33,466 nt of DNA, taken from assembly GCA_031368035.1 (NCBI GenBank), contig JANLQT010000359.1, positions 1-33,466 of the forward strand. Reading direction: 5' to 3'. The notes under the pieces were generated by a model that made no database searches, was not told the DNA's origin, and worked only from the letters and a program-made list of their open reading frames with translations. Both the position numbers and the translations under genes were made by a program. Positions 5,448-33,466 of the stretch are shown in pieces; position 1 is the first letter of the stretch, and each line of letters begins with the position of its first letter. This DNA is from Rhodobacterales bacterium (lineage in GTDB: Bacteria > Pseudomonadota > Alphaproteobacteria > Rhodobacterales > Rhodobacteraceae).

Positions 5448-6938
5448 TCAATGCACCGCCGCATACATGATCTTCTGCTCTGTCGCCTCGGACGGGGTGA
5501 ATTCCTCGACGATCCGGCCCTGTCGCGCCACCAGGATGCGGTCGGACAGGTTCAGGATTTCCGGCAGATAGGACGAGATCACCATCACCGCCAGCCCGTC
5601 ATCGGCAAGATTTTGGATCAACTGGTGAATCTCGGCAATCGCCCCCACATCGACCCCGCGCGTGGGTTCGTCGAAGATCACCATACGCGGCTTTTGCACA
5701 AGGGATTTGGCAATGACCACCTTTTGCTGATTGCCACCCGACAGTTCGATCACCCGCGCGTCGGCGTTTATGGTCCTGATGTTCAGCTTGCCGCGCCACG
5801 CCTCGGCGAGGGTCGCCATTTCGGCATGGCTGACAATCGGCGGGCCTGCTGCCGCGAGCCTTCCAAGGTGCAGGTTCTGCGCGATCGACATCTGGTCGAA
5901 GAAGCCTTCCAGCTTGCGGTCTTCGGTCACATAGACCACGCCGTCCAACACGGCATGACGGGGCAGGCGGTAGGTGACGGGACGGTCCATCAGCCGCACC
6001 TCGCCGCCGTTGAAGAAGTTGCGCTTCAAGACGCCGGCAACGATCTTGGCGGCCTCGGTCCGGCCCGAGCCGATCAGGCCGAAGACCCCGGTGACCTGGC
6101 CCGCATAGATGGTGAACGAGGTGTTGCGCACCATCGCGCCCATCGACAGGTTCTGCACCGACAGCACCTTGGCCCCTGCCGCGCGCACGCGGCCCGCGTG
6201 GCGTTGATACAGCGCGCCTGACAGGGTGCGCCCGACCATGGCCTGGATGACCTTGTCCCGGTCAAAGGCGCGGGCCTGATCGGTCACCACCAGTTCACCG
6301 TCGCGCAGGATGGTGATGCGGTCGGCGATCAACAGCGCCTCTTCGATGGCATGGCTGATGAACACGATCGCTACGCCGTCCTGTTTCAGGCGCTGCACGA
6401 GGGCGAAGAAATAGCGCTTTTCCTCGGGCGTCAGGGTCGCGGTCGGTTCGTCGAAGATGATCAGCCGGGCCTTTTGCAACACGGCGCGGGCGATTTCGAC
6501 CATCTGTTTTTGCGCGGCGCCAAGGCCCGAGACCATGGCCAGGGGATCGACGTTGAAGTTCAAGGTTTGCAGGAATTGCTGGGCAGCAATCGTCAGGCCG
6601 CGCAGGCGGTTGTAGCATTTCTCGTTCCCAAGATAAAGGTTCTGCGCCACGGTCATTGACGGCACGAGGCTGGTTTCCTGAAACACCATCGCCACGCCAT
6701 GCGCCAGCGCCTCGGACGGAGAGCGGAAGACGGCCTCGTGTCCGTCGATCTTCAAGCTGCCGGAACTGGGGCTGGTGACCCCGGCGATGATCTTGGTCAG
6801 CGTGGATTTGCCCGCGCCGTTTTCGCCCAGAAGCGCGTGGATTTCGGCAGGCATCACGGTGAAGGTCACGTTCTTCACCGCCGGAACGCCGCGATATTCC
6901 TTGGTGATGGCGGTCATTTCGACCAGGGGCGGGGTCAT
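5448..6938 (-). CDS. Sugar-type ABC transporter ATP-binding protein
   Basis: GENGAGKST, IFDEPT and LSGGNQQKVV. Start MTPPLVEM at 6938 overlaps the upstream stop (ATGA). Confidence 0.95.
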   Translation of the reverse strand: MTPPLVEMTAITKEYRGVPAVKNVTFTVMPAEIHALLGENGAGKSTLTKIIAGVTSPSSGSLKIDGHEAVFRSPSEALAHGVAMVFQETSLVPSMTVAQNLYLGNEKCYNRLRGLTIAAQQFLQTLNFNVDPLAMVSGLGAAQKQMVEIARAVLQKARLIIFDEPTATLTPEEKRYFFALVQRLKQDGVAIVFISHAIEEALLIADRITILRDGELVVTDQARAFDRDKVIQAMVGRTLSGALYQRHAGRVRAAGAKVLSVQNLSMGAMVRNTSFTIYAGQVTGVFGLIGSGRTEAAKIVAGVLKRNFFNGGEVRLMDRPVTYRLPRHAVLDGVVYVTEDRKLEGFFDQMSIAQNLHLGRLAAAGPPIVSHAEMATLAEAWRGKLNIRTINADARVIELSGGNQQKVVIAKSLVQKPRMVIFDEPTRGVDVGAIAEIHQLIQNLADDGLAVMVISSYLPEILNLSDRILVARQGRIVEEFTPSEATEQKIMYAAVH

Positions 6939-7981
6939 GGCTGCACCTCGGTCAGGGACAGGATCGCGTGGCCGCCCTTGCTGGTCACCAGAACCCGGTC
7001 GCCAAAGTGCAAGGCCGAGGTGACGCCGTGGAAACGGCCATCGGCGCGGCTGTGATAGCTGGCGATGGGCCGGAAATCGGCGTCCAGCCGCACCAGAAGG
7101 CCATAGGACCGCGTCGGCGCCCAGGGCTTGATGATGCCATGGGTGCGGATGGCGCCGCCTTGCAGGGGTTCGTTGAAATCCACAGCAGGAGACAGAGAGG
7201 GGGCGATCCAGTGGCCTGGGTCCACCTCGCGCATCATGCGGGTGCGGTAGGCAGGTTCGCGCAGGACCAGTTCGATCAGTTGGTTTCTCGGGGCGAAGAC
7301 CGGCAGCCACCAGCCACCGGGGGCGGGGGACAGGCGCGCAGGATAGCCGGGCAGGTCGGTGATCAGGGGGGTGCCCGATTGGGTCAGGCGGTGCTTCCAA
7401 GCCTCGACTACCACGACCCGCTCGCCTGCGAGCGCCGCTCCGATGGGCCAGGACAGGCCATCCGCCAGCTTTTGCAGGGTGCCGTCCGCGACCGACAACG
7501 CCCAGACCGAGCCGGAGGTCCCGGCTTGCAGCAGATCGCGCTTCCAGTCGGCGGTGGGGTTTTGGGCAGAGCCGATGCAGACGATCAGGCGGCCCGCGCC
7601 GCCGGGGGCCAAAGCGGTGATGCAGGCGCCGGGGGCCTTGACGGTGCGGTCGGTCTCGCCGGTCAGGATCAGGCTGCCGTCGGCCAGCCCGATTGCCAGA
7701 GTGGCGTCAATCACCGCCATGGCCGTCACCTCGGCGGGGCAGCGCCGCCATTCGGCGGCGACCCCAGTGGCGGGGTCCAGCGCGTGAAGGACAGCACCGG
7801 ACGAGAACAGCACCTGGCCCCGGAACAGGACCAGATTGTCTGGGGCGGCGATTCGGGCCACTACCGTAGCGTCCTCTAGCAGGGTATTCGGCCGCAGCGC
7901 CCCGTCCATCGGCGGCACGGTGGCGGCAAAGGCGCCGCGACCGCGGAACCGGTCAATGCGGCTGGTAAGCCAGGCCATCAT
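6935..7981 (-). CDS. Strictosidine-synthase-like beta-propeller protein with degenerate metal ligands
   Basis: Motifs LADGLSWPIG, VVEAWKHRL, LITDLPGYPARL and HGVTSA parallel the SSL domain of the upstream fusion. ATGA-coupled on both sides. Confidence 0.8.
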   Translation of the reverse strand: MMAWLTSRIDRFRGRGAFAATVPPMDGALRPNTLLEDATVVARIAAPDNLVLFRGQVLFSSGAVLHALDPATGVAAEWRRCPAEVTAMAVIDATLAIGLADGSLILTGETDRTVKAPGACITALAPGGAGRLIVCIGSAQNPTADWKRDLLQAGTSGSVWALSVADGTLQKLADGLSWPIGAALAGERVVVVEAWKHRLTQSGTPLITDLPGYPARLSPAPGGWWLPVFAPRNQLIELVLREPAYRTRMMREVDPGHWIAPSLSPAVDFNEPLQGGAIRTHGIIKPWAPTRSYGLLVRLDADFRPIASYHSRADGRFHGVTSALHFGDRVLVTSKGGHAILSLTEVQP

Positions 7982-10098
7982 GGCCGCGCGCCCCAATAGG
8001 CGCGCGGACCGGTCCAGTCCGGGTCGGCGCCGGGGATCTTGTAGCGGCCGATCCGGTTGTTGAAGATGCCGCCGAGGTAAAGGTAGCCCTTGTGCTCGCG
8101 GATCGAGGTGACCTGCGGGTGCTTTTCGCCCACGCCGTCCCACAGCGACTGAAGGATGGTGCCGGACAGGTCGAACTTGATGACGCCGCCGGTGTTCATG
8201 TTGGGATAGAGCCATTCGTCGCGGGCGATCTGCATCACCATGTGCTTGCGGAATTTCGGCATCCGCTGCGCCAGGTCAAAGGCGGGGGCGCGCATGCCGA
8301 TGATGCCGCACCAGAAATTGCCGTCCGAGGCGAGGTTGATGTTGTCGGGATAGCCCGGCAGGTCCGGGATGACCGCTTCCACCCGGCCCTTGTTCGGCCC
8401 GTCATAGTAGAACCGGCTGATCCGGCAGCCCCAGGTTTCGGCGAACAGGAAGGACTGGCTATCGGGCACCATGCAGATGCCGTTGGGAAACTGGCGGCCC
8501 GACAGCACGGTCTTGGACGAGCCGTCGCGAGGGTCATAGCAGATGATCCGCCCGTTGCCGCGCCCCTCCAGCGCGTCGATGATCCAGTCGTGCATCTCAT
8601 ACCGGATCGTCGCTTCGGAGAAGAACACCCGGCCATCGGGGGCGATGTCCAGATCGTCGGCCAGCCGCATCCGGCTGTCATCGACGATGGACAGCCAGGA
8701 GCGGGTGGTTTCGTCCGACAGCTTGATGACCTCGCGCGCCTTGGTGACTTTATACAGGCCCATGCCGCCCACGCAGACCAGAAGGCTGCCCTCGCGGTCA
8801 AAGGCCATCCCAAGGGTCGAGCCGCCGATATGGACAAAGACCTCGCGCTGTTTGTGGTCGGGGGCGAGGAAGCGGATGATGTCGCCGTCGCGGCTGCCGC
8901 AGTACAGGTTGCCGTCCTCGTCCAGGATCACATCTTCCGGCCCGTCCACCTCGCCCACGCCGATGGGTTCGGCATCAGACAGAAGATTGTTGATCGCATA
9001 GGGCGAGGTGGGCGCTCGGCTGACCTTTTGCAGGGGTGGTAGGGCGAAATAGGTGGGCGAGACATAGGACCGCGCCAGCAGTTTCGCGCGGTTCTTCAAC
9101 CAGCGCACGTCGATGGCGACAGCGATCAGCAGGATTGACCCCAGCACCAGCGACGAGGCACCCGACCGCAGGCCCAGCCGGATCAGCGAGTTGGTGATGA
9201 TGACGACGATCACCACGCCCAGCACCGTCTTGAACACCGATCCGCGCCCACCGCCAAGGCTGGTGCCGCCCAGCACGACTGCGGTCAGGATGGTGATTTC
9301 CAGGCCAAGGCCGGTGTCATTGCCAAGGCTGGCCAGACGCGCGGCGTAAAACACCCCCGCCGCCGCCGTCAGAACTCCGGACGCGACATAGGTCAGGCAG
9401 ACGGTGCGCCGCACGTCGATCCCGGCATTGTGCGCCGCCCGGCGCGAGCCGCCGACCGCCAGCACATGCCAGCCCGGCCGCAGACGGGTCAGGGTGAAAT
9501 GCGCCACCAGCGCCAGCGCCATGGCGTCAAGGAAGCTGGGCGCAATGCCGAAGACCGTCTTGAAGGACAGAAAGTCCCAGACCGGGCTTTTGATCTGCAC
9601 CGAGGAGATTTGTTTGGACCAGGACAGCAGCAGCGTGTCGGTGATCGAGCGAACGATGATCAGCATCACCAGCGTGGTCAGAAACGCCCGCAGCCGCAGA
9701 TAGCCGATCAGCAGCCCGTTCACGAGGCCGATCAGACCCCCGCCCGCGACCACCACCAGCGCCGCCGCCCACCACGGCAGGCCCACCACGCCGCCCAGTG
9801 CCAGCATCGACAGGTTCGCCAGCGCAAACACCGATCCCACCGACAAATCGATCCCGCCCGCCATCACCACGATGGTCAGACCCAGCGCCACCAGCAGATA
9901 TTCGCCGCCGGTCCTGGTCATACCGCTCATGCTGCCGGCGCTGAACATGCTGGGCAGGATGGTGCCGAACACGGCAAGGGCGATCAGTAGGAATAGCACC
10001 GGGATCGCGTTATCGACCCAAGGTTTGGACAGGATCTCGCCCACAACCTTGTCCGGAACAAGTCGGTAGCGCCAGCGGGTGAAGACGTCGCTTGCCAT
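7978..10098 (-). CDS. ABC permease fused to a C-terminal strictosidine-synthase-like / SMP-30-gluconolactonase beta-propeller
   Basis: The N-terminal ~335 aa is an RbsC-like permease (GGIDLSVG, AVVLGGTSLGGGRG). The C-terminal domain has GPEDV, LADDLDI, FPNGI, AETW and LPGYPDNI. Start 10098 was chosen by alignment to the paralogue at 33263 (alternative 10110). Confidence 0.92.
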   Translation of the reverse strand: MASDVFTRWRYRLVPDKVVGEILSKPWVDNAIPVLFLLIALAVFGTILPSMFSAGSMSGMTRTGGEYLLVALGLTIVVMAGGIDLSVGSVFALANLSMLALGGVVGLPWWAAALVVVAGGGLIGLVNGLLIGYLRLRAFLTTLVMLIIVRSITDTLLLSWSKQISSVQIKSPVWDFLSFKTVFGIAPSFLDAMALALVAHFTLTRLRPGWHVLAVGGSRRAAHNAGIDVRRTVCLTYVASGVLTAAAGVFYAARLASLGNDTGLGLEITILTAVVLGGTSLGGGRGSVFKTVLGVVIVVIITNSLIRLGLRSGASSLVLGSILLIAVAIDVRWLKNRAKLLARSYVSPTYFALPPLQKVSRAPTSPYAINNLLSDAEPIGVGEVDGPEDVILDEDGNLYCGSRDGDIIRFLAPDHKQREVFVHIGGSTLGMAFDREGSLLVCVGGMGLYKVTKAREVIKLSDETTRSWLSIVDDSRMRLADDLDIAPDGRVFFSEATIRYEMHDWIIDALEGRGNGRIICYDPRDGSSKTVLSGRQFPNGICMVPDSQSFLFAETWGCRISRFYYDGPNKGRVEAVIPDLPGYPDNINLASDGNFWCGIIGMRAPAFDLAQRMPKFRKHMVMQIARDEWLYPNMNTGGVIKFDLSGTILQSLWDGVGEKHPQVTSIREHKGYLYLGGIFNNRIGRYKIPGADPDWTGPRAYWGARP

Positions 10099-10139
10099 GC
10101 CGGTTTCCATTGGGGGGATGGATGGGAAAAGGGGGGTGT

Positions 10140-10165
10140 GCCGGGCAGGCCTGAACCTGCCCGGC
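10140..10165 (-). terminator. Intercistronic hairpin downstream of the binding-protein gene
   Basis: Perfect 10-bp stem GCCGGGCAGG/CCTGCCCGGC with a 6-nt loop. Confidence 0.55.
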
Positions 10166-10180: not shown

Positions 10181-11191
10181 TCAGCCGCCGGATTTGCCGA
10201 TCTCGTCCAGGGTCCAGCAGGACGCGGGCGTCATGTTGTCCTTGGTCACTTCCACCAACGGGCTGAGCAGCGCGAAGGGCGCCGAGCCCGCGGGCAGTTT
10301 GGTCTGCAGCAGCATCTTGATCGCATCGTTCAGATCGCGCGACTGCCCGGCCACGTTGTAGCTGTGATAGACGGCGAATTCGCCCGATTCCACCTTGGCG
10401 CAGCCAGCGTCGCGGCTGCCGCCGCCCGAGGTGGCCAGCACGACCTTGCCTTGTAGTCCGGCCTCGCGGATGGCGCCCGCGGTGCCGGTGTCGGCCACGT
10501 CCCAGAAGCCAGCGATGCCGCAGAGGTCGGGGTTTTGCTGCAGCACGGTGGCGGTGATCGCAAAGGCCTTGGTGGCGTCCCAGTCCGCAGCTTGGCTGGA
10601 CACGATCTTGACCTCGGGATGCTTGGCGATCAGGTCCTCGATCCCCTGTTTCATCAGGATCGAGGCGGGCGCTGCCGTAGCGCCTTCCACCACCGCGATC
10701 TTGCCCGAGGTGCCCGCGCCGCATTTGTCGACGAGTGCCTGCGCGGTCACGGTGCCGATGTTGTACCAGTCAGGCCCGACATAGGCGTCCGACTTGGTCT
10801 CGACGCTTTGCTGCACCTGAATGACCGGGATGCCGGCCGCTGCGGCCTGTTGCACCAGACGGTTGTAGGACTGGCTGTCGTTGTTCTGGATGATCAGCAG
10901 ATCGGGATGTTCTTCAATCAGCGAGGTGATGGCCTGGATGCCGCTTTCCACGCTCCAGTTCGGGTCGCGAACGATGATCTCGTAACCCAGCTCGTTCGCC
11001 TGGCGCTGCATGCCGGCCAGCCAGCCCTGCGTCAGGTCAAAGCCCATCGAGATCGGCACGAAGCCGACCTTCTTGCCCTTCAGCGCGTCGTAATAGCCGG
11101 GCGCCACGCTGTCTTGCGCAAGGGCCAGACCCGGCGCCAGCGTCAGGGCCACACAAATCAGCCCTGTCTTCAACTTCGTCTTGAAATCCAT
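10181..11191 (-). CDS. Sugar-type ABC transporter substrate-binding protein
   Basis: Signal peptide (…APGLALA-QD), RbsB-like motifs (DAYVGPD, QAADWD); RBS GGGAGG. Confidence 0.92.
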   Translation of the reverse strand: MDFKTKLKTGLICVALTLAPGLALAQDSVAPGYYDALKGKKVGFVPISMGFDLTQGWLAGMQRQANELGYEIIVRDPNWSVESGIQAITSLIEEHPDLLIIQNNDSQSYNRLVQQAAAAGIPVIQVQQSVETKSDAYVGPDWYNIGTVTAQALVDKCGAGTSGKIAVVEGATAAPASILMKQGIEDLIAKHPEVKIVSSQAADWDATKAFAITATVLQQNPDLCGIAGFWDVADTGTAGAIREAGLQGKVVLATSGGGSRDAGCAKVESGEFAVYHSYNVAGQSRDLNDAIKMLLQTKLPAGSAPFALLSPLVEVTKDNMTPASCWTLDEIGKSGG

Positions 11192-11265: not shown

Positions 11266-12249
11266 TTAGATATCGCCTTGTTGCGCCGTCTGTTCGTCGC
11301 GCGGGTTGATCAGGGTATCCAGAACCAGCGCCAGCAGCAGGATCAGCGCCTTGATGACGTTCTGGGCGGTATAGGTCAGGTTCAGCATGGTCATGCCGTT
11401 CAGCATGATGCCGATCAGCAGGGTGCCCACCACGACGCTGAGGATGCCGCCGCGCCCGCCGGACAGCGATATGCCGCCCAGAACGACGACAAGGATCACG
11501 TCATAGACCAGCGTGCCCGACACAATCCGCGTGTTCATGCTGGTGACCAGCATGGTCATGAGCATCCCCGCGAGCAGGCCGATCAGCGCCGAGATGACAT
11601 ATTGCAGCACCATCATCACCCGTACCGGCACGCCGGCGGTGCGGGCCGCGACCGGGTTGTCGCCCATCGCATAGATGAACCGCCCATCGCGCAGATAGCG
11701 CAGCGCGACATGGGCCAGAACGGCGCATCCTAGGAAGGCAATCACCGGCACCGGCAACCCCAGCGGACGGGCCGCGACCATATCGGCCAGCCAGCGCCAG
11801 TTTTCCGGCACATGGTTCACGTCGGATTCGACCAGAAAGAACTTGCCGAAGCCGTAAACCGTCACCCCCATCGCCAAGGTCGCAAAGATCGCCGGAATCT
11901 CGACATAGGCCACCAGAATGCCGTTGATGATGCCGACCAGAACGCTGAACCCTATCGCCAGCGGCAGGGCCTGTGCGAGCGGGGCACCGGCATTCAGTTG
12001 CACCAGCATCCAGGCGATCGCCACCGACATCGAGGCGACGATCGACAGGTCGATGCCGCGCCCCAAAATGGTGATCGCCATGCCGATGCCAAGAATGCCC
12101 AGCACCGACACGCTTTGCACCATCGACACGATGTTGCCCGCCGACAGGAATCCCGGGATCAGTACGCAGAAGATGCCAAAGACCACGACAGCAATCACGA
12201 AGATGATCTCTTCCTGACCAAACCGCCTGCGGCTGCTTCCCCCGGACAT
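11266..12249 (-). CDS. ABC transporter permease (RbsC-like)
   Basis: GRGIDLS, IPAIFATL and VVLGGISLSGGRG. Start MSGGSS at 12249 has an AGGGAGG RBS. Confidence 0.93.
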   Translation of the reverse strand: MSGGSSRRRFGQEEIIFVIAVVVFGIFCVLIPGFLSAGNIVSMVQSVSVLGILGIGMAITILGRGIDLSIVASMSVAIAWMLVQLNAGAPLAQALPLAIGFSVLVGIINGILVAYVEIPAIFATLAMGVTVYGFGKFFLVESDVNHVPENWRWLADMVAARPLGLPVPVIAFLGCAVLAHVALRYLRDGRFIYAMGDNPVAARTAGVPVRVMMVLQYVISALIGLLAGMLMTMLVTSMNTRIVSGTLVYDVILVVVLGGISLSGGRGGILSVVVGTLLIGIMLNGMTMLNLTYTAQNVIKALILLLALVLDTLINPRDEQTAQQGDI

Positions 12250-12302: not shown

Positions 12303-12324
12303 AAACTGAGCGAGCGCTCGTTTT
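12303..12324. promoter_or_regulatory. Palindromic operator, likely TetR-type
   Basis: AAActGAGCGagCGCTCgtTTT dyad between the divergent transporter operon and tetR; overlaps the predicted transcription start. Confidence 0.6.
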
Positions 12325-12353: not shown

Positions 12354-12386
12354 TTCAGCTAAATGGGTCACAGGACGGAGGCAGGC

Positions 12387-13088
12387 TTGGACGCGACGAC
12401 ACCGACAGTGCTGCAATTGCGCCCGCGCGAGCTGACCTCACACGTGCTGTGTGCTGTCATTTTCAGGCAGTTCAGCGCGTCGATCCGCGTGCAGAAAGAG
12501 CATGTGGCCGTGCCCAATCTGGAAAAGATCATCCTGGCCGCGTTGGACATCGGCCGGCGCAAAGGGTTCCATTCGACGACGACGCGCGATCTGGCCGAGG
12601 CGAGCGGGCTGAGCATGGGGGCGATCTACAGCTATGTGCAAAGCAAGGAGACGCTGCTGCGGATGATTCTGGCCGGGGTCGATCATGCCGTCGAAAGCGC
12701 CATCGTGCCCTTTGACGTGGGCGAGCAAAGCGATCCGGCCTTGCGCTTGCACGGGTTGATCAGGCGGCATATCGAAGTGTCCGATATCCTGCAGCGCTGG
12801 TTCGCCTTTGCCTTTCTGGAAGTGAAGGCGTTTGACAAGGACGCCCGCGACATGGTCCTGCAAGCGGAGCTGCGCAACGAAAGGCTGATGGCCGATGCGA
12901 TTTCTGACGGGATCGCGCGGGGCATATTCATCGACCTGCCGCCGCTGGCGCTGGCTGGGATGATCATGCCCCTGCTGCAGGACTGGTACATCAAGCGCTG
13001 GAAATTCCGCAAACGCGGCATGACCGGCGCGGCCTATGTCCAAGCGGTGAACGAGTTCGTGGACCGGGCCATTGCGCGCGCCGTTTGA
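12387..13088 (+). CDS. TetR/AcrR family regulator with N-terminal extension
   Basis: HTH KGFHSTTTRDLAEASGLSMGAIYSYVQSKE. TTG start at 12387 follows GGAGG (alternative ATG 12363). Confidence 0.9.
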   Translation: MDATTPTVLQLRPRELTSHVLCAVIFRQFSASIRVQKEHVAVPNLEKIILAALDIGRRKGFHSTTTRDLAEASGLSMGAIYSYVQSKETLLRMILAGVDHAVESAIVPFDVGEQSDPALRLHGLIRRHIEVSDILQRWFAFAFLEVKAFDKDARDMVLQAELRNERLMADAISDGIARGIFIDLPPLALAGMIMPLLQDWYIKRWKFRKRGMTGAAYVQAVNEFVDRAIARAV

Positions 13089-13142: not shown

Positions 13143-13185
13143 TTCAGAGATGCTACGCACTGGAATAATTTGCTACCGGTCAGTG
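13143..13185 (+). promoter_or_regulatory. Candidate promoter of the second tetR with two degenerate TAC-N6-GTA boxes
   Basis: TTCAGA-N17-TAATTT. Boxes TACGCACTGGAA (13154-13165) and TACCGGTCAGTG (13174-13185) are 8 nt apart. Confidence 0.35.
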
Positions 13186-13220
13186 TCTTGTGGTAGCGTC
13201 ATGCTCAGCAAGGACGACCG

Positions 13221-13853
13221 ATGTCAAAAGCGCGAACCACCTCCAGGGCTGCATCTGTCTGGGACGAGGTGGCCGAGTTGAAACGAGAGAAGATCCTGCA
13301 AAGCGCGGTCGATCTTTTCTACACCAAAGGCTATCTGCCGACAACGATGGACGCCATCGCCGAAAGCATTGGCGCAACGAAGCCCTTTGTCTACTATCAC
13401 TTTGAAAACAAAGCGGAACTTCTGTCGGAAATCGCTCGCCGCACCCTGCGTGAATGGATGGGCGTGACGACACGGGTCATCGAGCAATCGCTGGCTCCGA
13501 CCGAGGCTTTGTCGCTTGCGACGCATCAGTTCACGATGATCGTCTTGGACATGTACAAGCTGGTATCGATCTACTTCCGCGAGCAGCTAAACCTGCCAAA
13601 GGAAGTCGCCGAAGAAATCGCCAAGATGCGCCGGGACATCGACACCCAGGTGCGCATGATCCTGTCTGATGGCAAGAAAAGCGGCGCCTTTGAATTCGAT
13701 GATCTGGCCGTTGCAAGCCAGGTGGTGACCGGGATGGTCAGTTTCGCTTTCGCCTGGTACCGCGAACCTTCTCGGCTGTCGAAGGAGGCGATTTGCAGCC
13801 AGATGGTCTCGCACGTGCTCCGCAGTGTCGGGGCACGAACGCAAGAAAGGTAA
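13221..13853 (+). CDS. TetR family regulator (KstR2-like C-terminal domain)
   Basis: KILQSAVDLFYTKGY.PTTMDAIAESIGATKPFVYYHFENKAELL; C-terminal G...GAF...WYR pattern; RBS AAGGA. Confidence 0.92.
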   Translation: MSKARTTSRAASVWDEVAELKREKILQSAVDLFYTKGYLPTTMDAIAESIGATKPFVYYHFENKAELLSEIARRTLREWMGVTTRVIEQSLAPTEALSLATHQFTMIVLDMYKLVSIYFREQLNLPKEVAEEIAKMRRDIDTQVRMILSDGKKSGAFEFDDLAVASQVVTGMVSFAFAWYREPSRLSKEAICSQMVSHVLRSVGARTQER

Positions 13854-14225: not shown

Positions 14226-14864
14226 TTGCTCACAGTTCATCACCTTGGAATTTCTCAATCTGAAAGAATCGTCTGGCTCTGCGAGGAGCTTGAAATTCCT
14301 TACGAGTTTATCCGCTATGAGCGCACCGCGATCAACCTGACGCCTCCGGCATACCGTGCCTTGCATCCCAGTGGCACGGCGCCGGTGATCACGGATGGCA
14401 AAGTGACGTTGGCCGAATCTGGGGCGATCATGGAATACATCATCGCCAAATACGGACGGGGGCGCTTCGCCGTTGGGCCAGAAAGCGCTGATTTTGCTAA
14501 CTATCTATACTGGATGCACTACGCGAATGGGTCCTTCATGGCGGGGGGTATCTTGACCTTTTCCCTCGGTGTGATGAATGTTGATCCCGCCAACGAGACG
14601 GTGCGCGACATCAACACACGCTATGCCCGCGGCTTTGACATGGTCGAGAAGCGCTTGGTCGAATCGCCCTTTCTTGCGGGTGAGCAATTCACGGCGGCTG
14701 ACATCATCATGGCCTTCCCATTGACAACGATGCGGCTGTTCACGCCGCTCGACCTTGCCAACTATCCCAGCATCCGCGCCTACCTTCAGAGAATCGGTGG
14801 GCGTCCGGCATTCCAGCGCATGGTTGCCAAAATCGCCCCCGACCCGGCACCGCCACTGGTCTGA
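14226..14864 (+). CDS. Glutathione S-transferase (GTT1-like)
   Basis: SQSERIVWLCEEL, HPSGTAPVI, LAESGAI and FTAADI motifs; TTG start after GGGAGG. Confidence 0.92.
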   Translation: MLTVHHLGISQSERIVWLCEELEIPYEFIRYERTAINLTPPAYRALHPSGTAPVITDGKVTLAESGAIMEYIIAKYGRGRFAVGPESADFANYLYWMHYANGSFMAGGILTFSLGVMNVDPANETVRDINTRYARGFDMVEKRLVESPFLAGEQFTAADIIMAFPLTTMRLFTPLDLANYPSIRAYLQRIGGRPAFQRMVAKIAPDPAPPLV

Positions 14865-16861: not shown

Positions 16862-16901
16862 TTGCCTTCCCTGTACCTTGATACCAGTGGGAGTAAAATT
16901 A

Positions 16902-16941
16902 TACTGGTTAGTATGATCGCGTTTGACACCGGTTATGTCAA
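16902..16941 (-). promoter_or_regulatory. Internal promoter/operator region
   Basis: AT-rich 96-nt gap containing the TACTGGTTAGTA dyad (16902-16913) and TTGACA-N7-TGTCAA (16923-16941). Confidence 0.5.
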
Positions 16942-16957
16942 GAGTCAAAGCCAGTCG

Positions 16958-18597: not shown

Positions 18598-18615
18598 GTT
18601 GTTCCCTTTCAGACC

Positions 18616-23624: not shown

Positions 23625-23984
23625 TCATCCATTCCGCACCTCCCCCTCGATCACCGTCTCGGCGCGCTGGTTCACGCAGCGGAAGTCGAACCCGTCGCCT
23701 TGCGAGGCCGTGACCACGATGCCAATCGTATCGCCGGGATGGGCCGGGCGCAGATACCGCAGTTTCATCCGGCTGTTTGGCAGCATCACCGGCAGGCCCG
23801 AGTTCGCCTGAACCAGCCGGAAGATCGGCTCCATCGGGATGCAGCCATGTGCAATCGTCGCCCCGAACGGCGTTGCCGTCGCAAAGGTCGGGTCCACATG
23901 CACCGGATTGAAATCGCCCGAGATCGCGGCATAGGCGTCGATCAGGGCTTGGGTGATCGTGATGGTCGGGGCCTTATCGGTCAT
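23625..23984 (-). CDS. MaoC-family (R)-specific enoyl-CoA hydratase/dehydratase
   Basis: SGDFNPVHVD...FGATIAHG hydratase-2 motif; start 23984 is ATGA-coupled. Confidence 0.9.
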   Translation of the reverse strand: MTDKAPTITITQALIDAYAAISGDFNPVHVDPTFATATPFGATIAHGCIPMEPIFRLVQANSGLPVMLPNSRMKLRYLRPAHPGDTIGIVVTASQGDGFDFRCVNQRAETVIEGEVRNG

Positions 23985-24406
23985 CGGGCGCCCCCGGGGA
24001 TTATTGCGGTGAAACGGACGCAGCAGACCTGTTCTTGCCGCGTATTGGTGGTGACCATCTGATAGGTCAGAAAGCGGCGGCCCTTGCGCTCGAACCGGTC
24101 GGTGATGGTCAGCGCCGTGGTCAGAAAGTCGCCTGCGCGGGCCGGCACGCCATAGGTGTTCTCGTCGCCGACGCGGATGACTCCGGGCGGGAACACCTGC
24201 GCCTCCCACCCCAGCCGCAAGCCGAAGGCGAGGCTCATCGAAGTCGGGGCAACCGCGCCGCCCGGGGCATCCGCGCGAAAGGCCGGGTCGTCATAGCCCA
24301 GCAGCGCGCAGAAGCCGTCGATATCGGTCTGGGTCAGATGGGTCTGGCCCCGGCAAATCTCGCGCCCCGGTTCGGCCCCGTCAAAGGTTGTCAGCGGATT
24401 GGTCAT
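23981..24406 (-). CDS. Hot-dog fold protein (MaoC-like partner subunit)
   Basis: FC..LG.DDP.F...VAP, P.RAGD.L...TITD..ERKGR.F pattern. It lacks the complete D-x4-H motif and is ATGA-coupled on both sides. Confidence 0.8.
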   Translation of the reverse strand: MTNPLTTFDGAEPGREICRGQTHLTQTDIDGFCALLGYDDPAFRADAPGGAVAPTSMSLAFGLRLGWEAQVFPPGVIRVGDENTYGVPARAGDFLTTALTITDRFERKGRRFLTYQMVTTNTRQEQVCCVRFTAIIPGGAR

Positions 24407-27627: not shown

Positions 27628-28791
27628 TCAATAGGATTTCGGCAAGCCAAGCCCGACCTGGGCGATATAGTTCTTGCCCATCTCGTTGGTGATGGGCGCG
27701 AAGATCAGCTGGCGTATGTCACGGTAATACCGCTGCATGTTGTATTCCATCGCAAAGCCGTATCCCGCCAGAACCCGCATACCCCGATCCGTGGTGCGGA
27801 ACGCGGCTTCCGAGGCGAAGTATTTCGCCATCGACGCGGGCAAGGAGCAGTCCTGTCCGTTGTCTTGCATCCAGGATGCCTTGTAGGTCATCAGCCGCGC
27901 CAGTTCGATTTCGGTCAGGCTGTCGGCCAGCGGGTGTTGCACGGCCTGAAACGCCCCGATGGGCTTGCCGAAAGCGCTGCGTTCCTTGGCATATTGCACG
28001 GCGTCGTCCAGCGCGCCTTGCCCAAGACCGACGCAGACGGCAGCGACGAAGATGCGTTCATTGTTCAGCGTGTCGATGATGGCATGCCAGCCCCGCCCTT
28101 CGGTGCCGACCACCGAGGATTTCGGCACGCGGACATCCTTGTAGCTGACCTCGTAGCTGTGCAGGAATTTCGAGCCCAGCTTTTCGATCTTGCGATAGGT
28201 GATGCCGGGCGTGTCCTTCGGGATCAGGAACACCGTCAGCCCGTGCGACAGCTTGTCTGGGTTGCGCGAGGTGCGCGCGACGACGAACAGGAACGACGCG
28301 ATGTTCAGGCCAGTCGTCCAGATCTTGGCGCCATTGATGATGTAGTCATCGCCGTCCGCCACCGCCTTGGTCTTCATCGCGCCAAGAATATCCGTGCCGC
28401 CATCCGGCTCGGTCATAGACAAAGCGAAATGCACCTCGCCGGCGGCGATTCTGGGCAGGAATTCCTGCTTTTGCGCGTCGCTGCCATGGCGTTCGATCGT
28501 CACCGCGCCAAACGAGATATCCAGCCCATAGGCCAGCGCCACGGTCGAGGAGTGCCGCGCGAGTTCTTCCAGCACGATGGTTTCCTCGACCACGCCGCCG
28601 CCGGTGCCGCCAAATTGTTCGGGAACCGAGGCGCCCATCAGGCCGATCTTGGCCATCTTGTCCAGAAGTCCGTCGGGGAAGCTGCCTTTTGCATCCCATT
28701 CCGACACGGCGTCCTTGGGCATTTCCCGTTCGACGAACTTGCGCACCAGATCGCGCAGGGCGAGCTGATCCTCGGTGAAATCGAAGTTCAT
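27628..28791 (-). CDS. Acyl-CoA dehydrogenase
   Basis: SMTEPDGGTD, INGAKIWTT, LNNERI, R.AFGKPIGAFQAVQH and GYG. Start 28791 follows GGGAGG. Confidence 0.94.
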   Translation of the reverse strand: MNFDFTEDQLALRDLVRKFVEREMPKDAVSEWDAKGSFPDGLLDKMAKIGLMGASVPEQFGGTGGGVVEETIVLEELARHSSTVALAYGLDISFGAVTIERHGSDAQKQEFLPRIAAGEVHFALSMTEPDGGTDILGAMKTKAVADGDDYIINGAKIWTTGLNIASFLFVVARTSRNPDKLSHGLTVFLIPKDTPGITYRKIEKLGSKFLHSYEVSYKDVRVPKSSVVGTEGRGWHAIIDTLNNERIFVAAVCVGLGQGALDDAVQYAKERSAFGKPIGAFQAVQHPLADSLTEIELARLMTYKASWMQDNGQDCSLPASMAKYFASEAAFRTTDRGMRVLAGYGFAMEYNMQRYYRDIRQLIFAPITNEMGKNYIAQVGLGLPKSY

Positions 28792-28890
28792 GACCATCCT
28801 CCCATTCTTTTGCGGGTACACGTCCCTTGGCGGGCTCATGTCCACACGACCCAACGTTCCAGACGCCGGGGGCACTCGAAACGCTTTTTG

Positions 28891-28931
28891 TACCTATAGG
28901 TATCTAGCCATACTAATGGGTAACTTGTCAA
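28891..28931 (-). promoter_or_regulatory. Leftward promoter with two TAC-N6-GTA operator boxes
   Basis: Minus strand: TTGACA-AGT-TACCCATTAGTA-TGGCTAGA-TACCTATAGGTA. Confidence 0.7.
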
Positions 28932-29147: not shown

Positions 29148-29188
29148 TTGACAACATACTAATTAGTAGGCTTAGATACCTTAAGGTA
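29148..29188 (+). promoter_or_regulatory. Rightward promoter with two TAC-N6-GTA operator boxes
   Basis: TTGACA-ACA-TACTAATTAGTA-GGCTTAGA-TACCTTAAGGTA; both boxes are perfect 12-bp palindromes. Confidence 0.7.
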
Positions 29189-29308: not shown

Positions 29309-29506
29309 GTGAGCTTCAGATTCGCCAAGAATCATTTAGCGTTGCCCGACGTGGCGCGGACCTTTGTGGAGGGGGAAGTGGTCAAGCGTATGTTTGCCGC
29401 GCGGCAGGCGAAAGTCGCCTTGTTGGACGGCTTTCCAGTCGAAAGCGCCTGGGGCAGCGCAGCGCGAAAGATCTGGATCCCGCACTTCGGACTGCCTATC
29501 GCATGA
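29309..29506 (+). pseudogene. Truncated acyl-CoA dehydrogenase remnant (65-codon ORF)
   Basis: GGAGG-N6-GTG start. MSFRFAKNHLALPDVARTFVEGEVVK… aligns ungapped to the N-terminus of the 28791 dehydrogenase (17 of 41 identical by hand). Its stop overlaps the ligase ATG. Confidence 0.65.
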
Positions 29507-31113
29507 CTGCGCCAATGGACATCGCTTCCGCAGAAACACTTACCGCCCCGCCGTCCGTCGAGCGGGTCTTTCACTACCTTCTTGAAGACCGTGCTGCCGC
29601 CATCGCGCAGAAGCCCTGCCTTGTGATGGGCGAGCGCAGCCTGACCTGGGCAGAGGTGAATAGAGAGGGGAACCGCTGGGCCAATGGCCTTGCAGCCGCC
29701 GGGATCGGCAAAGGCGACCGCGTGCTGCTGATGATCCCCTCGGGGATCGAGCATGTGCTGATCTGGCTTGGCCTGTGCAAGCTGGGCGCGATCATGGTGC
29801 CGGTCAACGAGGCCTACAAGGGGGCGATGCTGCGCCATCAGGTCAATGATTCCGAAGCTGGTCTCGCCATCGTGGCCGAGCGGCACCTGGACGCCTGGAT
29901 CGACCTTGCCTCCGACCTGCCGCACCTGCGCAACATCGCCGTGTCAGGCGGCGCTGCGCGGCACTCATTCCCTCAAATCCCCTGGGCCTGGTCCGACGCC
30001 GCCGACCTGCACAGCGCCGATCCCGCGCCGCTGCCGCGCATCGTCTCGGGCTTTGACCCGATGGCAATCTTTTATACTTCGGGCACCACCGGCCCGTCCA
30101 AGGGTGTGCTGTATTCCCATGCCCAAGCCTGGGCATCGGCCGAGGTTCCGGCGGATTGGTGCGCGCCCGAGGACGTCTTTTACATGTTCCTGCCGATGTT
30201 CCATGTCGGCCTCGCCCAGATGTTCGGCCTTGTCCTTCTGTCGGGCGCGACGATGGTGGTGCGCGAGAAGTTCAGCACCAGCAGCTTCTGGCCAGACGTG
30301 CGCCGCCATGGCGTGACCATGACGATCCTGCTTGCGACCATGCCGAACTTTCTGATGTCGCGCGCCGCCGAGGCAAGCGACCGGGATCACCCGCTGCGCA
30401 AGGTCATCATCATCCCGCTGCCCGCAGACCTTGACGGGTTCAAGGCCCGCTTTGGCGTCGAGGTTGCGACCTGGTTCAACATGACCGAGGTCAGCGTGCC
30501 TCTGCACTCGAACGGGTTCACCCTTGCCAATGCCACCTCTGCCGGCCGCCCGCGCCGCGGTGTCACCGCCCGCATCGTGGACGAATTTGACGAACCCTTG
30601 CCGCCGGGGCGGACCGGCGAGCTGGTTGTTCGTGCTGACCGACCCTGGGATTTCTGTCTTGGCTACTGGAAGAACCCCGCAAAGACCGTCGAAAGCTGGC
30701 GCAATCTGTGGTTCCACACCGGCGATGTGTTCCGCAACGATGAAGGCGGGAATTACTATTTCGTGGACCGCCTCAAGGACGCGATCCGGCGGCGGGGCGA
30801 GAACATCTCGTCCTTCGAGGTGGAGCGCGAGATCGACAGCCATCCCGCCGTGCTGGAATCTGCCGCCGTCGCGGTGCCGTCCAGCATGGGCGAGGATGAG
30901 ATCAAGGTCGTGGCCGCGCTGAAACCGGGCGCTACGCTGCTGCCTGCAGAGCTGCACGCCTACCTTGCCGCGCGCCTGCCGGCCTATATGGTGCCGCTTT
31001 TCGTCGAGATCGCAGGCGGGGAACTTCCGAAAACTCCTACCGGGAAGATCCTCAAGACCGCACTTCGCGACTCGGGCACCGCCGCTGCCTGGACTTCGGG
31101 AGGGCGGCCATGA
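29503..31113 (+). CDS. CaiC-like acyl-CoA ligase (second)
   Basis: YTSGTTGPSKG, FNMTE, HTGD, RRRGENISSFEVE and LPKTPTGKI. Start at 29503 or 29515. Confidence 0.92.
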   Translation: MTAPMDIASAETLTAPPSVERVFHYLLEDRAAAIAQKPCLVMGERSLTWAEVNREGNRWANGLAAAGIGKGDRVLLMIPSGIEHVLIWLGLCKLGAIMVPVNEAYKGAMLRHQVNDSEAGLAIVAERHLDAWIDLASDLPHLRNIAVSGGAARHSFPQIPWAWSDAADLHSADPAPLPRIVSGFDPMAIFYTSGTTGPSKGVLYSHAQAWASAEVPADWCAPEDVFYMFLPMFHVGLAQMFGLVLLSGATMVVREKFSTSSFWPDVRRHGVTMTILLATMPNFLMSRAAEASDRDHPLRKVIIIPLPADLDGFKARFGVEVATWFNMTEVSVPLHSNGFTLANATSAGRPRRGVTARIVDEFDEPLPPGRTGELVVRADRPWDFCLGYWKNPAKTVESWRNLWFHTGDVFRNDEGGNYYFVDRLKDAIRRRGENISSFEVEREIDSHPAVLESAAVAVPSSMGEDEIKVVAALKPGATLLPAELHAYLAARLPAYMVPLFVEIAGGELPKTPTGKILKTALRDSGTAAAWTSGGRP

Positions 31114-32087
31114 GCGGTCGTCGGTCGAGAATCAGTCAGGCGCGGATCGTCTTGGGCATCGCTGTCGTCGCCTTCATCGCGTTTTCCATTCTCGTACCGG
31201 GCTTCCTTTCGGCCGGCAACGTGTCGCGGCTTCTGCAAAACGTATCCATCCTTGGCATCCTTGCGATGGGCATGGCGCTGTCCATCATCGGGCGCGGCAT
31301 TGATCTGTCCGTGGTGGCCTCGATGGCGGTTTCGGTCGCCTGGATGCTGGCCGAGATGAACGCGGGCGCGTCGTTTCTCCATGCCTTCGGCTTCGCCCTT
31401 CTGTTCAGCATCGCGGTCGGCCTGCTCAACGGCGTCCTGATCGCCTATGTCGAGGTGCCGCCGATCTTTGCCACCCTTGCCATGGGCACCGCGATCTACG
31501 GCTTCGGTCGCGTGTTCCTGCTTGCGTCGGATGTGAACTACCTGCCCAAAGACTGGCAGTGGATGAACACGCTGGCGACCGCCGCGCCCCTTGGCGTGCC
31601 GGTCTCGGTGCTTTGCTTCGCCGCCGTCTGCGCCGTCGGGCATCTGTTTCTGCGGCGGGCGCGAGAGGGCCGCTACATCTACATGATGGGCGACAATCCG
31701 CAGGCGTCGCGCATCACGGGCGTTCCGGTACGGCTGATGATCGTCGCGCAATATGTCCTGACCTCGCTGGTGGCGCTGGTGGCGGGACTGCTGATGGCGG
31801 CACTGGTCGCCACGATGAACACCCGCATCGTCGGGTCCACCTACGTCTACGACATCATCCTTGTGGCGGTCCTTGGCGGCATCAGCCTTAGCGGCGGGCG
31901 GGGCGGGGCGGGAAGCGTGATTGTCGGCACCCTACTTATCGGCATCCTGCTCAACGGGATGACGATGATGAACCTTGGTTACACGACCCAGAACGTCATC
32001 AAGGCGCTGATCCTGCTTGCCGCGCTGACCATCGATTCCGTCGTGAACCCAAGGGACGAGCAGACATCCCAACAAGGGGACATCTAA
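31110..32087 (+). CDS. ABC transporter permease (paralogue of 11266-12249)
   Basis: GRGIDLS, PPIFATL, VLGGISLSGGRG and C-terminal NPRDEQTSQQGDI; ATGA-coupled to the ligase. Confidence 0.93.
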   Translation: MSGRRSRISQARIVLGIAVVAFIAFSILVPGFLSAGNVSRLLQNVSILGILAMGMALSIIGRGIDLSVVASMAVSVAWMLAEMNAGASFLHAFGFALLFSIAVGLLNGVLIAYVEVPPIFATLAMGTAIYGFGRVFLLASDVNYLPKDWQWMNTLATAAPLGVPVSVLCFAAVCAVGHLFLRRAREGRYIYMMGDNPQASRITGVPVRLMIVAQYVLTSLVALVAGLLMAALVATMNTRIVGSTYVYDIILVAVLGGISLSGGRGGAGSVIVGTLLIGILLNGMTMMNLGYTTQNVIKALILLAALTIDSVVNPRDEQTSQQGDI

Positions 32088-32155
32088 GACCGGACGCCGC
32101 CCCAAATTCGCAGCGCCCGCCCGTGACTCGCAACTAAACCAGGGAGGAACTGACT

Positions 32156-33190
32156 TTGACTATCATCACACGCACACGCACACTCGCCTCGGCCGCGGCC
32201 CTTTGCCTTGCCGTGTTTTCCGGCACCGCCGCCCCGATCGCCGCGCAGGACGTCTCACCCAGCGCGGGCTTTTACGACGCGCTGAAGGGAAAGAAGATCG
32301 GCTTCGTGCCGATTGCCATGGGCTTCAACGAAACCCAGGCCTGGCGCACCGCGATGGAGCGGCAGGCGGCAGCGCTCGGCTACGAAATCATCGTACGCGA
32401 CCCGAACTGGAGCATTGAAGCCGGTATTCAGGCGATCAACTCCTTGATCGAGGAAAAGCCCGACGTGCTGATCATCGAGAACATCGACAACCGGTCCTAC
32501 AATCGCCTCGTGCAGAAATCGATCGCAGCCGGCATCCTGACCGTGCAGACCCAGCAGCGCTCTGAAGTCGCAAGCGACGCCTATATGGGGCCGGACTGGA
32601 ACGAGATGGGCCGCAATGCCGTCGATGGCATCGTCCAGGCTTGCGGCAAGGACAGCGGCAGGAACGGCAAGGTCGCGATCATCCAGGGCGCGCTGACCGC
32701 CCCGGCGAGCCTCTTGCAGATGCAGGGGATCGAAGAGGCGCTGAAGGCGCATCCTGATATCACCATCGTCTCGAACCAGGCGGCGGATTGGGATGCGACC
32801 AAGGCCTACCAGATCGCCTCGACTGTTCTGAAGCAGGAACCGGATATCTGCGGCATCGCCGGGTTCTGGGACGTGGCCGACGCCGGCATCGCCTCGGCGG
32901 TCAAGGAAGCGGGCCTGCAAGGCAAGGTCGCGGTCATCACCTCGGGCAGCGGCGCAAAGGAATCGGCTTGCGACAAGATCGCGGCGGGCGATTTCACCTT
33001 CTACACCAGCTACAACACGGCCGGTCAGGGCCGCGATCTGAACGCGATCATCCGCACGCTGCTGCAGACGCGTCCGACGCCGGGCAGCAAGCCCTTCGAC
33101 CTTGTCAGCCCGCTGATCCGCATCACGAAAGAGACGATGACGCCGTCCTCGTGCTGGACGCTGGACGAGTTGAAGCAGATCGGCGGCTAA
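32156..33190 (+). CDS. ABC substrate-binding protein (paralogue of 10181-11191)
   Basis: Signal peptide; YDALKGKK.GFVPI.MGF, CGIAGFWDVAD and CWTLDE; TTG start after GGGAGG. Confidence 0.92.
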   Translation: MTIITRTRTLASAAALCLAVFSGTAAPIAAQDVSPSAGFYDALKGKKIGFVPIAMGFNETQAWRTAMERQAAALGYEIIVRDPNWSIEAGIQAINSLIEEKPDVLIIENIDNRSYNRLVQKSIAAGILTVQTQQRSEVASDAYMGPDWNEMGRNAVDGIVQACGKDSGRNGKVAIIQGALTAPASLLQMQGIEEALKAHPDITIVSNQAADWDATKAYQIASTVLKQEPDICGIAGFWDVADAGIASAVKEAGLQGKVAVITSGSGAKESACDKIAAGDFTFYTSYNTAGQGRDLNAIIRTLLQTRPTPGSKPFDLVSPLIRITKETMTPSSCWTLDELKQIGG

Positions 33191-33206
33191 GCCGGACTAT
33201 GACTGC

Positions 33207-33228
33207 GGGCGGCCCGCCAGGGCCGCCC
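33207..33228 (+). terminator. Intercistronic hairpin after the binding-protein gene
   Basis: Perfect 9-bp stem GGGCGGCCC/GGGCCGCCC with a GCCA loop, followed by TTT. Confidence 0.55.
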
Positions 33229-33262
33229 TTTCATCCCATTATTCCTCCAATCGAGCGAGCCC

Positions 33263-33466
33263 ATGAACCGCGACGTCCTGGTGCGCTGGCGCTACCGACT
33301 GATCCCCAACAACGTTCTGGGAGAGATTCTCTCCAAGACGTGGATCGACAACGCCGTTCCCGTTCTGATGCTCGCGGTCCTGCTTGCGGTCTTCGGCACA
33401 CTGGTGCCGAACTTGCTGAGTTTCGGAAACCTCAGCGATCTTTCCCAGACGGTCGGGGAATACCTG
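33263..33466 (+). CDS. N-terminus of a second permease, paralogue of the permease::SSL fusion, truncated by the window edge
   Basis: MNRDVLVRWRYRLIPNNVLGEILSKTWIDNAVPVL aligns with MASDVFTRWRYRLVPDKVVGEILSKPWVDNAIPVL. It is absent from the ORF track because there is no stop in the window. Confidence 0.88.
   Translation, partial: MNRDVLVRWRYRLIPNNVLGEILSKTWIDNAVPVLMLAVLLAVFGTLVPNLLSFGNLSDLSQTVGEYL

Follow-up and report, generated by a model that had tools for sequence, protein, structure and literature searches.

Two inverted ABC importer cassettes with permease-tethered propellers around an acyl-CoA core in a Rhodobacterales bacterium: a candidate system for lactone uptake

Importers of the CUT2 family (TC 3.A.1.2) are the nearest described relatives of two ATP-binding cassette (ABC) importers that bracket a set of acyl-coenzyme A (CoA) enzymes in a Rhodobacterales bacterium, on a contig of 33,466 nt (JANLQT010000359.1, here C159, one of the 791 contigs of assembly GCA_031368035.1); the window analysed is this entire contig. 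In the ribose-type binding proteins of such importers, the residues that grip the sugar have established roles, given in RbsB numbering. Other parts of the locus resemble systems of different kinds. In the calcium-dependent lactonase Rpa3624, the catalytic calcium is reported to be bound by E15, N123, N172, and D229 (PMC9843451). The protein TGW6 has been described as a hydrolase of IAA-glucose (IAA, indole-3-acetic acid), an acyl-glucose ester (PMC10958001), a role that is disputed in a preprint. In the 4-hydroxy-acid (lva/ACAD10-11) route, a CoA ligase activates the hydroxy acid and an acyl-CoA dehydrogenase acts on it (PMC12440821). In Pseudomonas aeruginosa, a PrpD-family protein has been proposed as a methylsuccinate isomerase, and its cluster also holds a lactonase (PMC9875883). 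Finally, the operators of the regulators AibR and DarR share the core TAC-N6-GTA (PMC5389471, PMC10636190).

The reading proposed here, to which a probability of roughly 0.55 is given, is that lactones are imported, opened on entry, and activated with CoA, after which the acyl-CoA core would remove a hydroxyl group or double bond, an E1/E2 complex would shorten the chain, and a valine-type module would provide the exit. The cargo of the two diverged five-gene importers would be small lactones, in which a short and probably branched hydroxy acid forms a cyclic ester, and the ring would be opened by a propeller, predicted to be calcium-dependent, at what is likely the cytoplasmic end of one permease. 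Two propellers are predicted to form an active/inactive heterodimer under the transporter, and hydrolysis would convert a neutral cargo into a trapped anion; two ligases would then activate the freed acids for the core. Which compounds are involved, and in what order the core enzymes act on them, are guesses.

The importer cassettes, their cargo pocket, and their propellers

Window genes were taken from open reading frame (ORF) translation and Pfam, and named by NCBIfam cut-offs. The left cassette, on the reverse strand, consists of a permease (11266..12249; PF02653), a binding protein without the canonical charged sugar-gripping residues (10181..11191; PF13407), a permease fused to a six-bladed propeller of the strictosidine-synthase-like (SSL) type (7978..10110; PF02653 with PF20067, PF03088, and PF08450), a second propeller that is an SSL homologue without metal ligands (6935..7981; assigned by hhalign, ligand columns, and complex score), and an RbsA-type ATPase with two ABC domains (5448..6938; PF00005 twice), which lies below every named NCBIfam sugar-ATPase cut-off. 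The right cassette, on the forward strand, is preceded by an acyl-CoA ligase (29503..31113; Pfam), the stop codon of which overlaps the start of the right permease (31110..32087; Pfam, identity to the left permease) as ATGA at 31110-31113. The right binding protein (32156..33190; ORF and alignment) and the 5′ part of a permease-propeller fusion (33263..33466) follow, the latter running off the contig. A sequence-only reading of this DNA had described the order permease, binding protein, and fused permease, twice in inverted orientation, with a hairpin after each binding-protein gene and an acyl-CoA ligase coupled to the right copy, and all of this has been confirmed by the ORFs, the Pfam matches, and the identities between left and right permeases (200/327, 61%) and binding proteins (191/315, 61%). 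The left hairpin (10140..10165, reverse strand, arms 10140-10149/10156-10165) has a z score of -3.5, with 0 of 200 shuffles equally good; the right one (33207..33228, forward strand, arms 33207-33215/33220-33228) has a z score of -2.2, with 4 of 200 equally good. An Rfam scan of the window gave no matches.

The missing end of the right cassette was found on contig C764 (locus L001, reverse strand), which overlaps the last 15 bases of the window in frame. This contig supplies the remainder of the fusion, the second propeller, and the ATPase (72, 57, and 75% identical to the left copy, respectively), which are the genes that the sequence-only reading had expected to the right; the right copy does have its propeller genes, and all four metal-site motifs are found in its fusion. 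The genome holds these two cassette copies only. Convergent on the right ATPase lies a SnoaL-like gene (L001:592-1110), with counterparts at 80-83% in four other genomes (G005, G010, G012, and G024), that probably belongs to the island.

The link between this type of importer and CoA metabolism is not limited to the window. In the genome collection, 198 fusion loci were found, and the 80 best by likeness to the window were examined; five of them (L002-L006), being close orthologues of the left copy, do not count as independent. All five genes stand in the full order in 68 of the 80, most of the others being short or cut contigs. For neighborhood counts, loci of at least 14 kb were kept (n = 65, 15 shorter ones being dropped), and 20 CUT2 importer loci from 12 genomes served as control. 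A gene for a CoA ligase, CoA transferase, or 3-hydroxy-3-methylglutaryl (HMG)-CoA reductase is present within the fetched flank in 53 of the 65 long loci versus 1/20 controls, and any CoA enzyme in 59/65 versus 3/20. The sequence-only reading had suggested a survey of neighborhoods for CoA ligases, and these counts support a tie to CoA chemistry. The commonest downstream neighbor is a CoA ligase (24/67 cassettes). The type of neighborhood largely tracks the binding-protein clade, in a quick tree that carries a long-branch warning, and several separate clades lie beside hydroxy-acid pathways. The types include AraC plus ligase, the core of the window, a degradative HMG-CoA reductase (TIGR00532 above cut-off; 10/80 loci, with an HMG-CoA-lyase-family gene in 7 of the 10), a kinase plus ligase (5/80, with acyl-CoA dehydrogenase in 4 of the 5; kinase versus the ACAD11 kinase domain, E 3e-14), and alcohol plus aldehyde dehydrogenases directly downstream (7/80), with itaconate/methylsuccinate-type genes adjoining in L053 and L063. 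What these pathways appear to share is a hydroxy acid able to exist as a lactone.

Some individual loci deserve separate mention. On a plasmid of Shinella sp. HZN7 (L166), a regulator, a degradative HMG-CoA reductase, and the cassette make up a minimal unit, in which the reductase stop overlaps the permease start; this locus is the most clear-cut test case for mevalonolactone. In six loci (L013, L014, L016, L037, L069, and L164), the cassette is preceded by a kinase, a protein of ~160 aa, a CoA ligase, DUF7064, and in most cases an acyl-CoA dehydrogenase and MaoC; this cluster is a candidate for a new 4-hydroxy-acid pathway. A CoA ligase-enoyl-CoA hydratase fusion stands directly after the cassette in L031 (14684-17353). 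Another example is a plasmid of Pantoea sp. At-9b (L163), in which the cassette lies beside dihydroxyacetone-kinase, triose-phosphate-isomerase, TIM-barrel, and phosphogluconate-dehydrogenase-like genes, presumably an apionate-type route; a sugar lactone is a possible cargo there.

The binding proteins have a ribose-binding fold, although the closest solved protein is at most ~26% identical. In a 73-row alignment compared with 2IOY, the pocket residues are replaced in every row at four positions (D by N/Q, R by M/L/Q, N by W, and D by G, each 73/73), and a second R is mostly Q/M/G. The binding protein of a levoglucosan cluster in the same window retains the equivalent D, R, and D, as judged by eye. 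The cargo is, to judge from these residues, probably not a sugar. The right binding protein further has N52, E53, E102, and S257 (left-copy numbering), which are unique among the 73 rows and retained by its orthologues in G005, G010, and G012; this points to a cargo different from that of the left copy.

It is very improbable that the cassettes are ordinary monosaccharide importers with CoA neighbors by chance. Pfam and fold do place them in the ribose-binding class, and the levoglucosan cluster adjoins the block on its left side, at window positions 1-5075 (dehydrogenase NF052479, 717.9 over a cut-off of 650, plus an ABM-domain gene and a CUT2 importer belonging to the cluster). However, this chance arrangement would have to accommodate the excess of CoA-activating neighbors over controls, the conserved stop-start overlap of the ligase, shared operator sites, and the altered pocket. 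In G010 and G012, the block has no levoglucosan genes next to it, and the cluster was rejected as a part of the system.

The fused domain has a six-bladed propeller fold that matches strictosidine synthase, TGW6, DFPase, Rpa3624 (E 3e-11), and paraoxonase. Residues E392, D485, N543, D589, and N590 are invariant in 84/84 fusions, and E392, D485, N543, and D589 match the calcium ligands of Rpa3624, as read from motifs and not from superposition. The second propeller is a homologue of the fused one (hhalign 99.75% to the fusion alignment), in which no signal peptide or clear membrane segment was found; in its ligand columns, N543 is mostly A (35/81), D589 is G/A/S, and N590 is R (76/81). The invariance of the metal ligands in the fused propeller, together with their loss in the partner, argues for catalysis. 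Complex prediction for the propeller pair gave 0.85, compared with 0.00 for the best control; this mark is reached by 116/157 solved and 2/215 mismatched pairs. The runs share at least 58% of contacts, the predicted local distance difference test (pLDDT) of the partner is at least 86, and the predicted interface includes the invariant second-propeller residues E237, E242, M249, W258, G276, and G282. The second propeller is predicted from these models to be a non-catalytic partner of the fused propeller. A basic stretch after the last membrane helix and the established topology of RbsC make a cytoplasmic position of the fused propeller likely.

Several points weigh against lactone import and opening. 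Small lactones may cross membranes unaided. No CoA-activating gene is in view in 12/65 long loci, and no CoA gene at all in 6/65. In the more distant plasmid loci, 11 of 15 of which were read, a CoA-activating gene is present in 3/11 and any CoA gene in 5/11, others having alcohol/aldehyde dehydrogenases. The 80 loci were chosen by likeness to the window and include kin that are not independent, so that the Fisher value for the comparison with control importers is overstated. The second metal site of the fused propeller has Asp versus Asn in Rpa3624. The two propellers are homologous, and the complex prediction may therefore echo remembered propeller oligomers. No methylmalonate-semialdehyde dehydrogenase, E3, or recognizable 3-hydroxyacyl-CoA dehydrogenase was found in the block. 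Finally, the closest solved relatives of the propeller by sequence are TGW6 (E 2e-17) and strictosidine synthases. The claim of the sequence-only reading that these importers carry CoA-ligase substrates or their precursors is thus supported in part: the altered pocket and the CoA neighborhoods speak for it, and the link thins in the distant plasmid loci.

The match to TGW6 also bears on the chemistry of the cargo, which might be a conjugate or ester with an open chain, such as an acyl-sugar or acyl-polyol, from which the propeller frees an acid for CoA ligation. The description of TGW6 as an IAA-glucose hydrolase, the sugar-type fold of the transporter, and the frequency of CoA ligases immediately downstream would all suit such a cargo; nevertheless, the pocket has lost the charged residues that would grip a sugar, and the recurring neighbors are hydroxy-acid pathways, sugar-catabolic genes being sporadic (L056, Pantoea At-9b). 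An open-chain ester is for these reasons considered unlikely.

The acyl-CoA core between the cassettes

The genes between the cassettes match the earlier description from sequence, as judged by Pfam and NCBIfam, and those of the core are all on the reverse strand. The core acyl-CoA dehydrogenase (27628..28791) is the most conserved core gene, at 91-96% within the genus. It is followed by a thiamine-dependent complex of the pyruvate dehydrogenase (PDH) type, below equivalog cut-offs, consisting of E1 alpha (26667-27620; 214 bits to PDH versus at most 144 to other 2-oxoacid E1), E1 beta (25670-26647), and E2 (24403-25659). Next is a MaoC/hotdog-type pair (23625..24406), the member at 23625-23984 having a Pfam match and that at 23981-24406 being assigned by position and likeness only; the pair is kept in every core locus long enough to show both genes. 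A CaiC-like core acyl-CoA ligase (22020..23585; below cut-off) and a BktB-family thiolase (20799..21980; NF006552, 612.7>565) lead to the valine-type module (16958..20789), which comprises an acyl-CoA dehydrogenase (19647-20789), a 3-hydroxyisobutyryl-CoA hydrolase (18616-19650; NF004127, 378.6>274), a 3-hydroxyisobutyrate dehydrogenase (17725-18597; TIGR01692, 364.3>291.6), and an enoyl-CoA hydratase (16958-17728). At the end stand a crotonase-fold PaaG-like protein (16046..16861), used as core marker, and an MDR oxidoreductase (14985..16049), likely an enoyl-CoA reductase, the catalytic-zinc motif of which appears altered by eye. Its second-best PDB match is 5K1S, which we take to be the enoyl-CoA reductase AibC. 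No equivalog cut-off is reached by either ligase, either acyl-CoA dehydrogenase, the PaaG-like protein, MDR, E1 alpha, or E2; the PDB matches of the core enzymes are generic, and no aldehyde dehydrogenase was found by Pfam among the block ORFs.

In other lineages, the dehydrogenase, ligase, E1 alpha/beta, E2, two MaoC-type, PaaG-like, and MDR genes recur together (L012, L015, L135, L139, and L142), with an E3-type gene in L012 and L139. The PaaG-like marker had no plasmid match, and a search of 400 genomes of the class added 1 carrier. The thiolase and valine-type module have been seen only in close relatives of the window, and a second hydrolase-dehydrogenase-hydratase set, 52-58% identical to the module, lies on C286; it is therefore likely that the product of the island enters at the level of a branched C4 acyl-CoA. 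In the proposed lactone route, the hydroxyl group or double bond that stands in the way of β-oxidation would be eliminated by the dehydrogenase, the MaoC pair, the PaaG-like isomerase, and the MDR reductase. A 2-oxo intermediate would lose one carbon to the E1/E2 complex, and the extra valine-type module would carry off a product with a branched C4 skeleton, namely isobutyryl-, methacrylyl-, or 3-hydroxyisobutyryl-CoA.

The core is not always accompanied by the cassette. In five loci (L135, L136, L139, L142, and L143, of which L136 and L143 are short contigs), it occurs with a PrpD-family gene and without a cassette in the fetched DNA, and a TRAP transporter lies beside it in L135, L139, L142, and L143; the cassette-bearing core loci (the window block, L012, L015, L133, and L137) have no PrpD gene. 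The cassette would thus be a replaceable uptake module, and a core with an organic-acid transporter in its place is what would be expected if the cassette supplies that acid from its ester. In L179 (G208:C14), core genes and a TetR2 homologue adjoin an ABC importer of the branched-chain-amino-acid type, as a third uptake module. In the sphingomonad locus L012 (Aquisediminimonas sediminicola), where core and cassette lie in a single gene run, a TonB-dependent receptor and the E3-type gene come after them (15515-19268).

That the core works without the cassette elsewhere would also fit a cargo that is itself a ring acid or heterocycle (a cyclic ether acid or nitrogen-bearing ring), opened by the core after ligation, with the propellers as gate, sensor, or accessory. 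Once desaturated, a ring acid could be opened by the PaaG-like isomerase, MaoC pair, and 2-oxoacid dehydrogenase, and the two extra glutamates of the right binding protein, present in 4/4 orthologues examined, may suit a cation. On the other hand, propellers without a catalytic role are difficult to reconcile with four metal ligands that are invariant in 84/84 fusions and lost in the partner, and the mevalonate and 4-hydroxy-acid neighborhoods of sister cassettes need no ring opening by CoA enzymes. This alternative is regarded as improbable, to about the same degree as the open-chain ester.

Operators, inheritance, and age of the block

Two TetR genes on the forward strand separate the left cassette from the core. 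TetR1 (12363..13088; TetR_N and TetR_C_24, start codon uncertain) has homologues (62-64%) beside the cassettes of L007 and L009. Its predicted operator is the palindrome GAGCG-NN-CGCTC at 12308..12319, in the left-cassette/TetR1 promoter; there are 6 such sites genome-wide, and the palindrome is conserved in G010 and G012 and also occurs in L002, L133, L007, and L009. TetR2 (13221..13853; TetR_C_24) is DarR-like (E 4e-15) and is the predicted regulator of the core and right cassette; its homologues accompany the core in L135, L137, L139, L142, and L143. The motif TACY-N4-RGTA occurs 5 times in the window, with 0.05 expected: as a pair with sites 20 bp apart in the core promoter (28891..28922), as a second pair with the same spacing in the ligase/right-cassette promoter (29157..29188), and as one site upstream of the PaaG-like/MDR pair (16902..16913), found at the equivalent place in G434 also. 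Both pairs survive in G010, G012, and G024 despite diverged intergenic DNA. Such sites recur near the core in L135, L137, L139, and L142, and they do not recur around the core in L012 or L015. A one-mismatch version lies upstream of TetR2 (13150-13220) and is perfect in G434; TetR2 likely autoregulates through it. From these sites, the right cassette, its ligase, and the core are likely to form one TetR2 regulon, and the left cassette likely answers to TetR1 for a related second cargo, which would make two regulons in one island.

The block behaves as a unit of inheritance. In G010 (C22) and G012 (C2), it is contiguous from the left ATPase to the right ATPase and SnoaL gene (~32 kb), with order unchanged and proteins 68-96% identical to those of the window, and the DNA outside differs; in G024, G005, G009, and G434 it is present in pieces. 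The PaaG-like core gene and the binding protein were matched in one identical set of 7/33 genus genomes, many of the 33 assemblies being incomplete, and both binding-protein types were seen in 5 of these 7. A variable member is the glutathione S-transferase (GST) gene (14226..14864, forward strand), present in G012, G009, and G434 and not at this place in G010 and G024. L177 (G434:C116), a 1.8-kb contig, has 99.4% DNA identity to window 29399-31195, compared with ~84% for the rest of the G434 block, which indicates either mis-binning or recent transfer.

The claim that the whole block is one system has therefore been sustained in part: the block is inherited as a unit, and the right cassette, ligase, and core share sites, although a single operator does not serve all transcription units, the left cassette having its own palindrome and TetR instead of TACY-N4-RGTA. 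This raises the possibility that the left cassette and TetR1 are an independent rider, the core being served by the right cassette and ligase alone. Besides the different palindrome, the fetched DNA of L007 and L009 has a TetR1 homologue and the left-type palindrome and cassette but no CoA core gene, and 372 non-coding bases plus the GST gene lie between the TetR genes and the core. However, in L137 a left-type cassette (71-76%) directly follows the PaaG-like/MDR pair, L012 and L015 carry a related cassette inside the core operon, and the left cassette and core co-occur in the same set of genus genomes. An independent left cassette, a question apart from the nature of the cargo, is judged less likely than not.

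With respect to age, the statement that the copies are diverged and the duplication is not recent has stood up. Compared with G010, both cassettes show 0.03-0.07 nonsynonymous (dN) and 0.5-0.95 synonymous (dS) substitutions per site in permeases, binding proteins, fusions, and ATPases, and 0.16-0.23 and 1.1-1.2, respectively, in the second propellers; the low dN relative to dS indicates that both cassettes are under purifying selection. Between left and right copies, dN is 0.20-0.34 and dS looks saturated. In a bootstrapped tree of four concatenated proteins from 21 cassettes, which answers the call for a phylogeny, the copies do not emerge as sisters: the left copy clusters with L137 and three cassettes from Hyphomicrobiales, leaving outside (78%) the right copy, which weakly joins sphingomonad cassettes (49%). 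A recent local inverted duplication was rejected on these dN values, as compared with orthologues, and on the non-sister position of the copies; on the sequence comparisons, left and right cassettes are old paralogues. Two cassettes occur in 5/80 other loci (L020, L021, L044, L047, and L060), all tandem and none inverted, with a ligase or hydratase between them in 4 of the 5; because the copies are not sisters and other two-cassette loci are tandem, the inversion needs no special explanation.

Implications and comparison with known systems

Annotation labels these loci as sugar transporters, and if the lactone reading is true, a family of at least 198 genome loci would be lactone scavengers. 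The neighborhoods suggest mevalonolactone, γ-lactones, and methyl-butyrolactones as test substrates; to these, the island contributes two naturally paired paralogues that differ in their pockets, along with a predicted regulon and an undescribed core pathway. A broader and more tentative view, held with less confidence than its contrary, is that the family is an "import-and-open" ABC class, in which the channel would hand its cargo to a permease-tethered active/inactive heterodimer, and the clades would have diversified to various lactones, each wired to its hydroxy-acid pathway. The island would then join two such importers, one of which may serve a cationic ring compound, to an undescribed β-oxidation and thiamine-dependent decarboxylating pathway for branched natural lactones. 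In the literature searched, which did not cover subscription journals and supplements, no ABC importer with a built-in catabolic hydrolase was found.

Some known systems were considered and set aside. For Lsr autoinducer-2 import, the scores are below cut-off (LsrA/C/D 406.6<586, 87<388, and 83<500) and no sugar kinase is found among the block ORFs; the same is true of the scores for the cai carnitine system (CaiC 454<651, CaiA 213<540). Pantoate and furoate routes were dropped, their marker genes being missing.

Partial likenesses are found with several others. The predicted TetR2 sites share the TAC-N6-GTA operator core of AibR and DarR, although here the sites are paired, 20 bp apart. As in the valine lower pathway, 3-hydroxyisobutyryl-CoA hydrolase and 3-hydroxyisobutyrate dehydrogenase score above cut-off, but here the module is an extra copy without semialdehyde dehydrogenase, the E1 is PDH-like, and the core elsewhere lacks the module. 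The itaconate/methylsuccinate cluster of P. aeruginosa also joins a lactonase to a CoA pathway for branched acids (PMC9875883), a PrpD-family gene accompanies the cassette-less core, and genes like those of the cluster flank sister cassettes; however, its 2-hydroxyparaconate lactonase belongs to another family, its transporter is different, and none of its core enzymes is in the block. With the lva/ACAD10-11 route the block shares ligase and acyl-CoA dehydrogenase, and the ligases of the kinase-type clusters at sister cassettes are 44-46% identical to the right ligase, but an LvaA-type kinase (PF01636) is absent and E1/E2, the MaoC pair, PaaG-like, and MDR proteins are present instead. The calcium propeller lactonases and relatives (Rpa3624, PON1, DFPase, SMP-30) and the SSL protein TGW6 have the same six-bladed fold and the four metal-ligand positions; in contrast, the propeller here is tethered to a permease, predicted to form a heterodimer with an inactive homologue, has Asp at the second site, and is 13-22% identical in the fold matches. 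Finally, the CUT2 importers RbsABC, AraFGH, AlsABC, and LsrACDB are alike in having PF13407, two PF02653 permeases, a twin-domain ATPase, and the ribose-binding fold. The cassettes described here differ from them in a pocket without sugar-gripping residues, in CoA-enzyme neighbors, in scores below cut-off for every named NCBIfam model, and in the permease-propeller fusion, with a degenerate second propeller as a fixed fifth gene.

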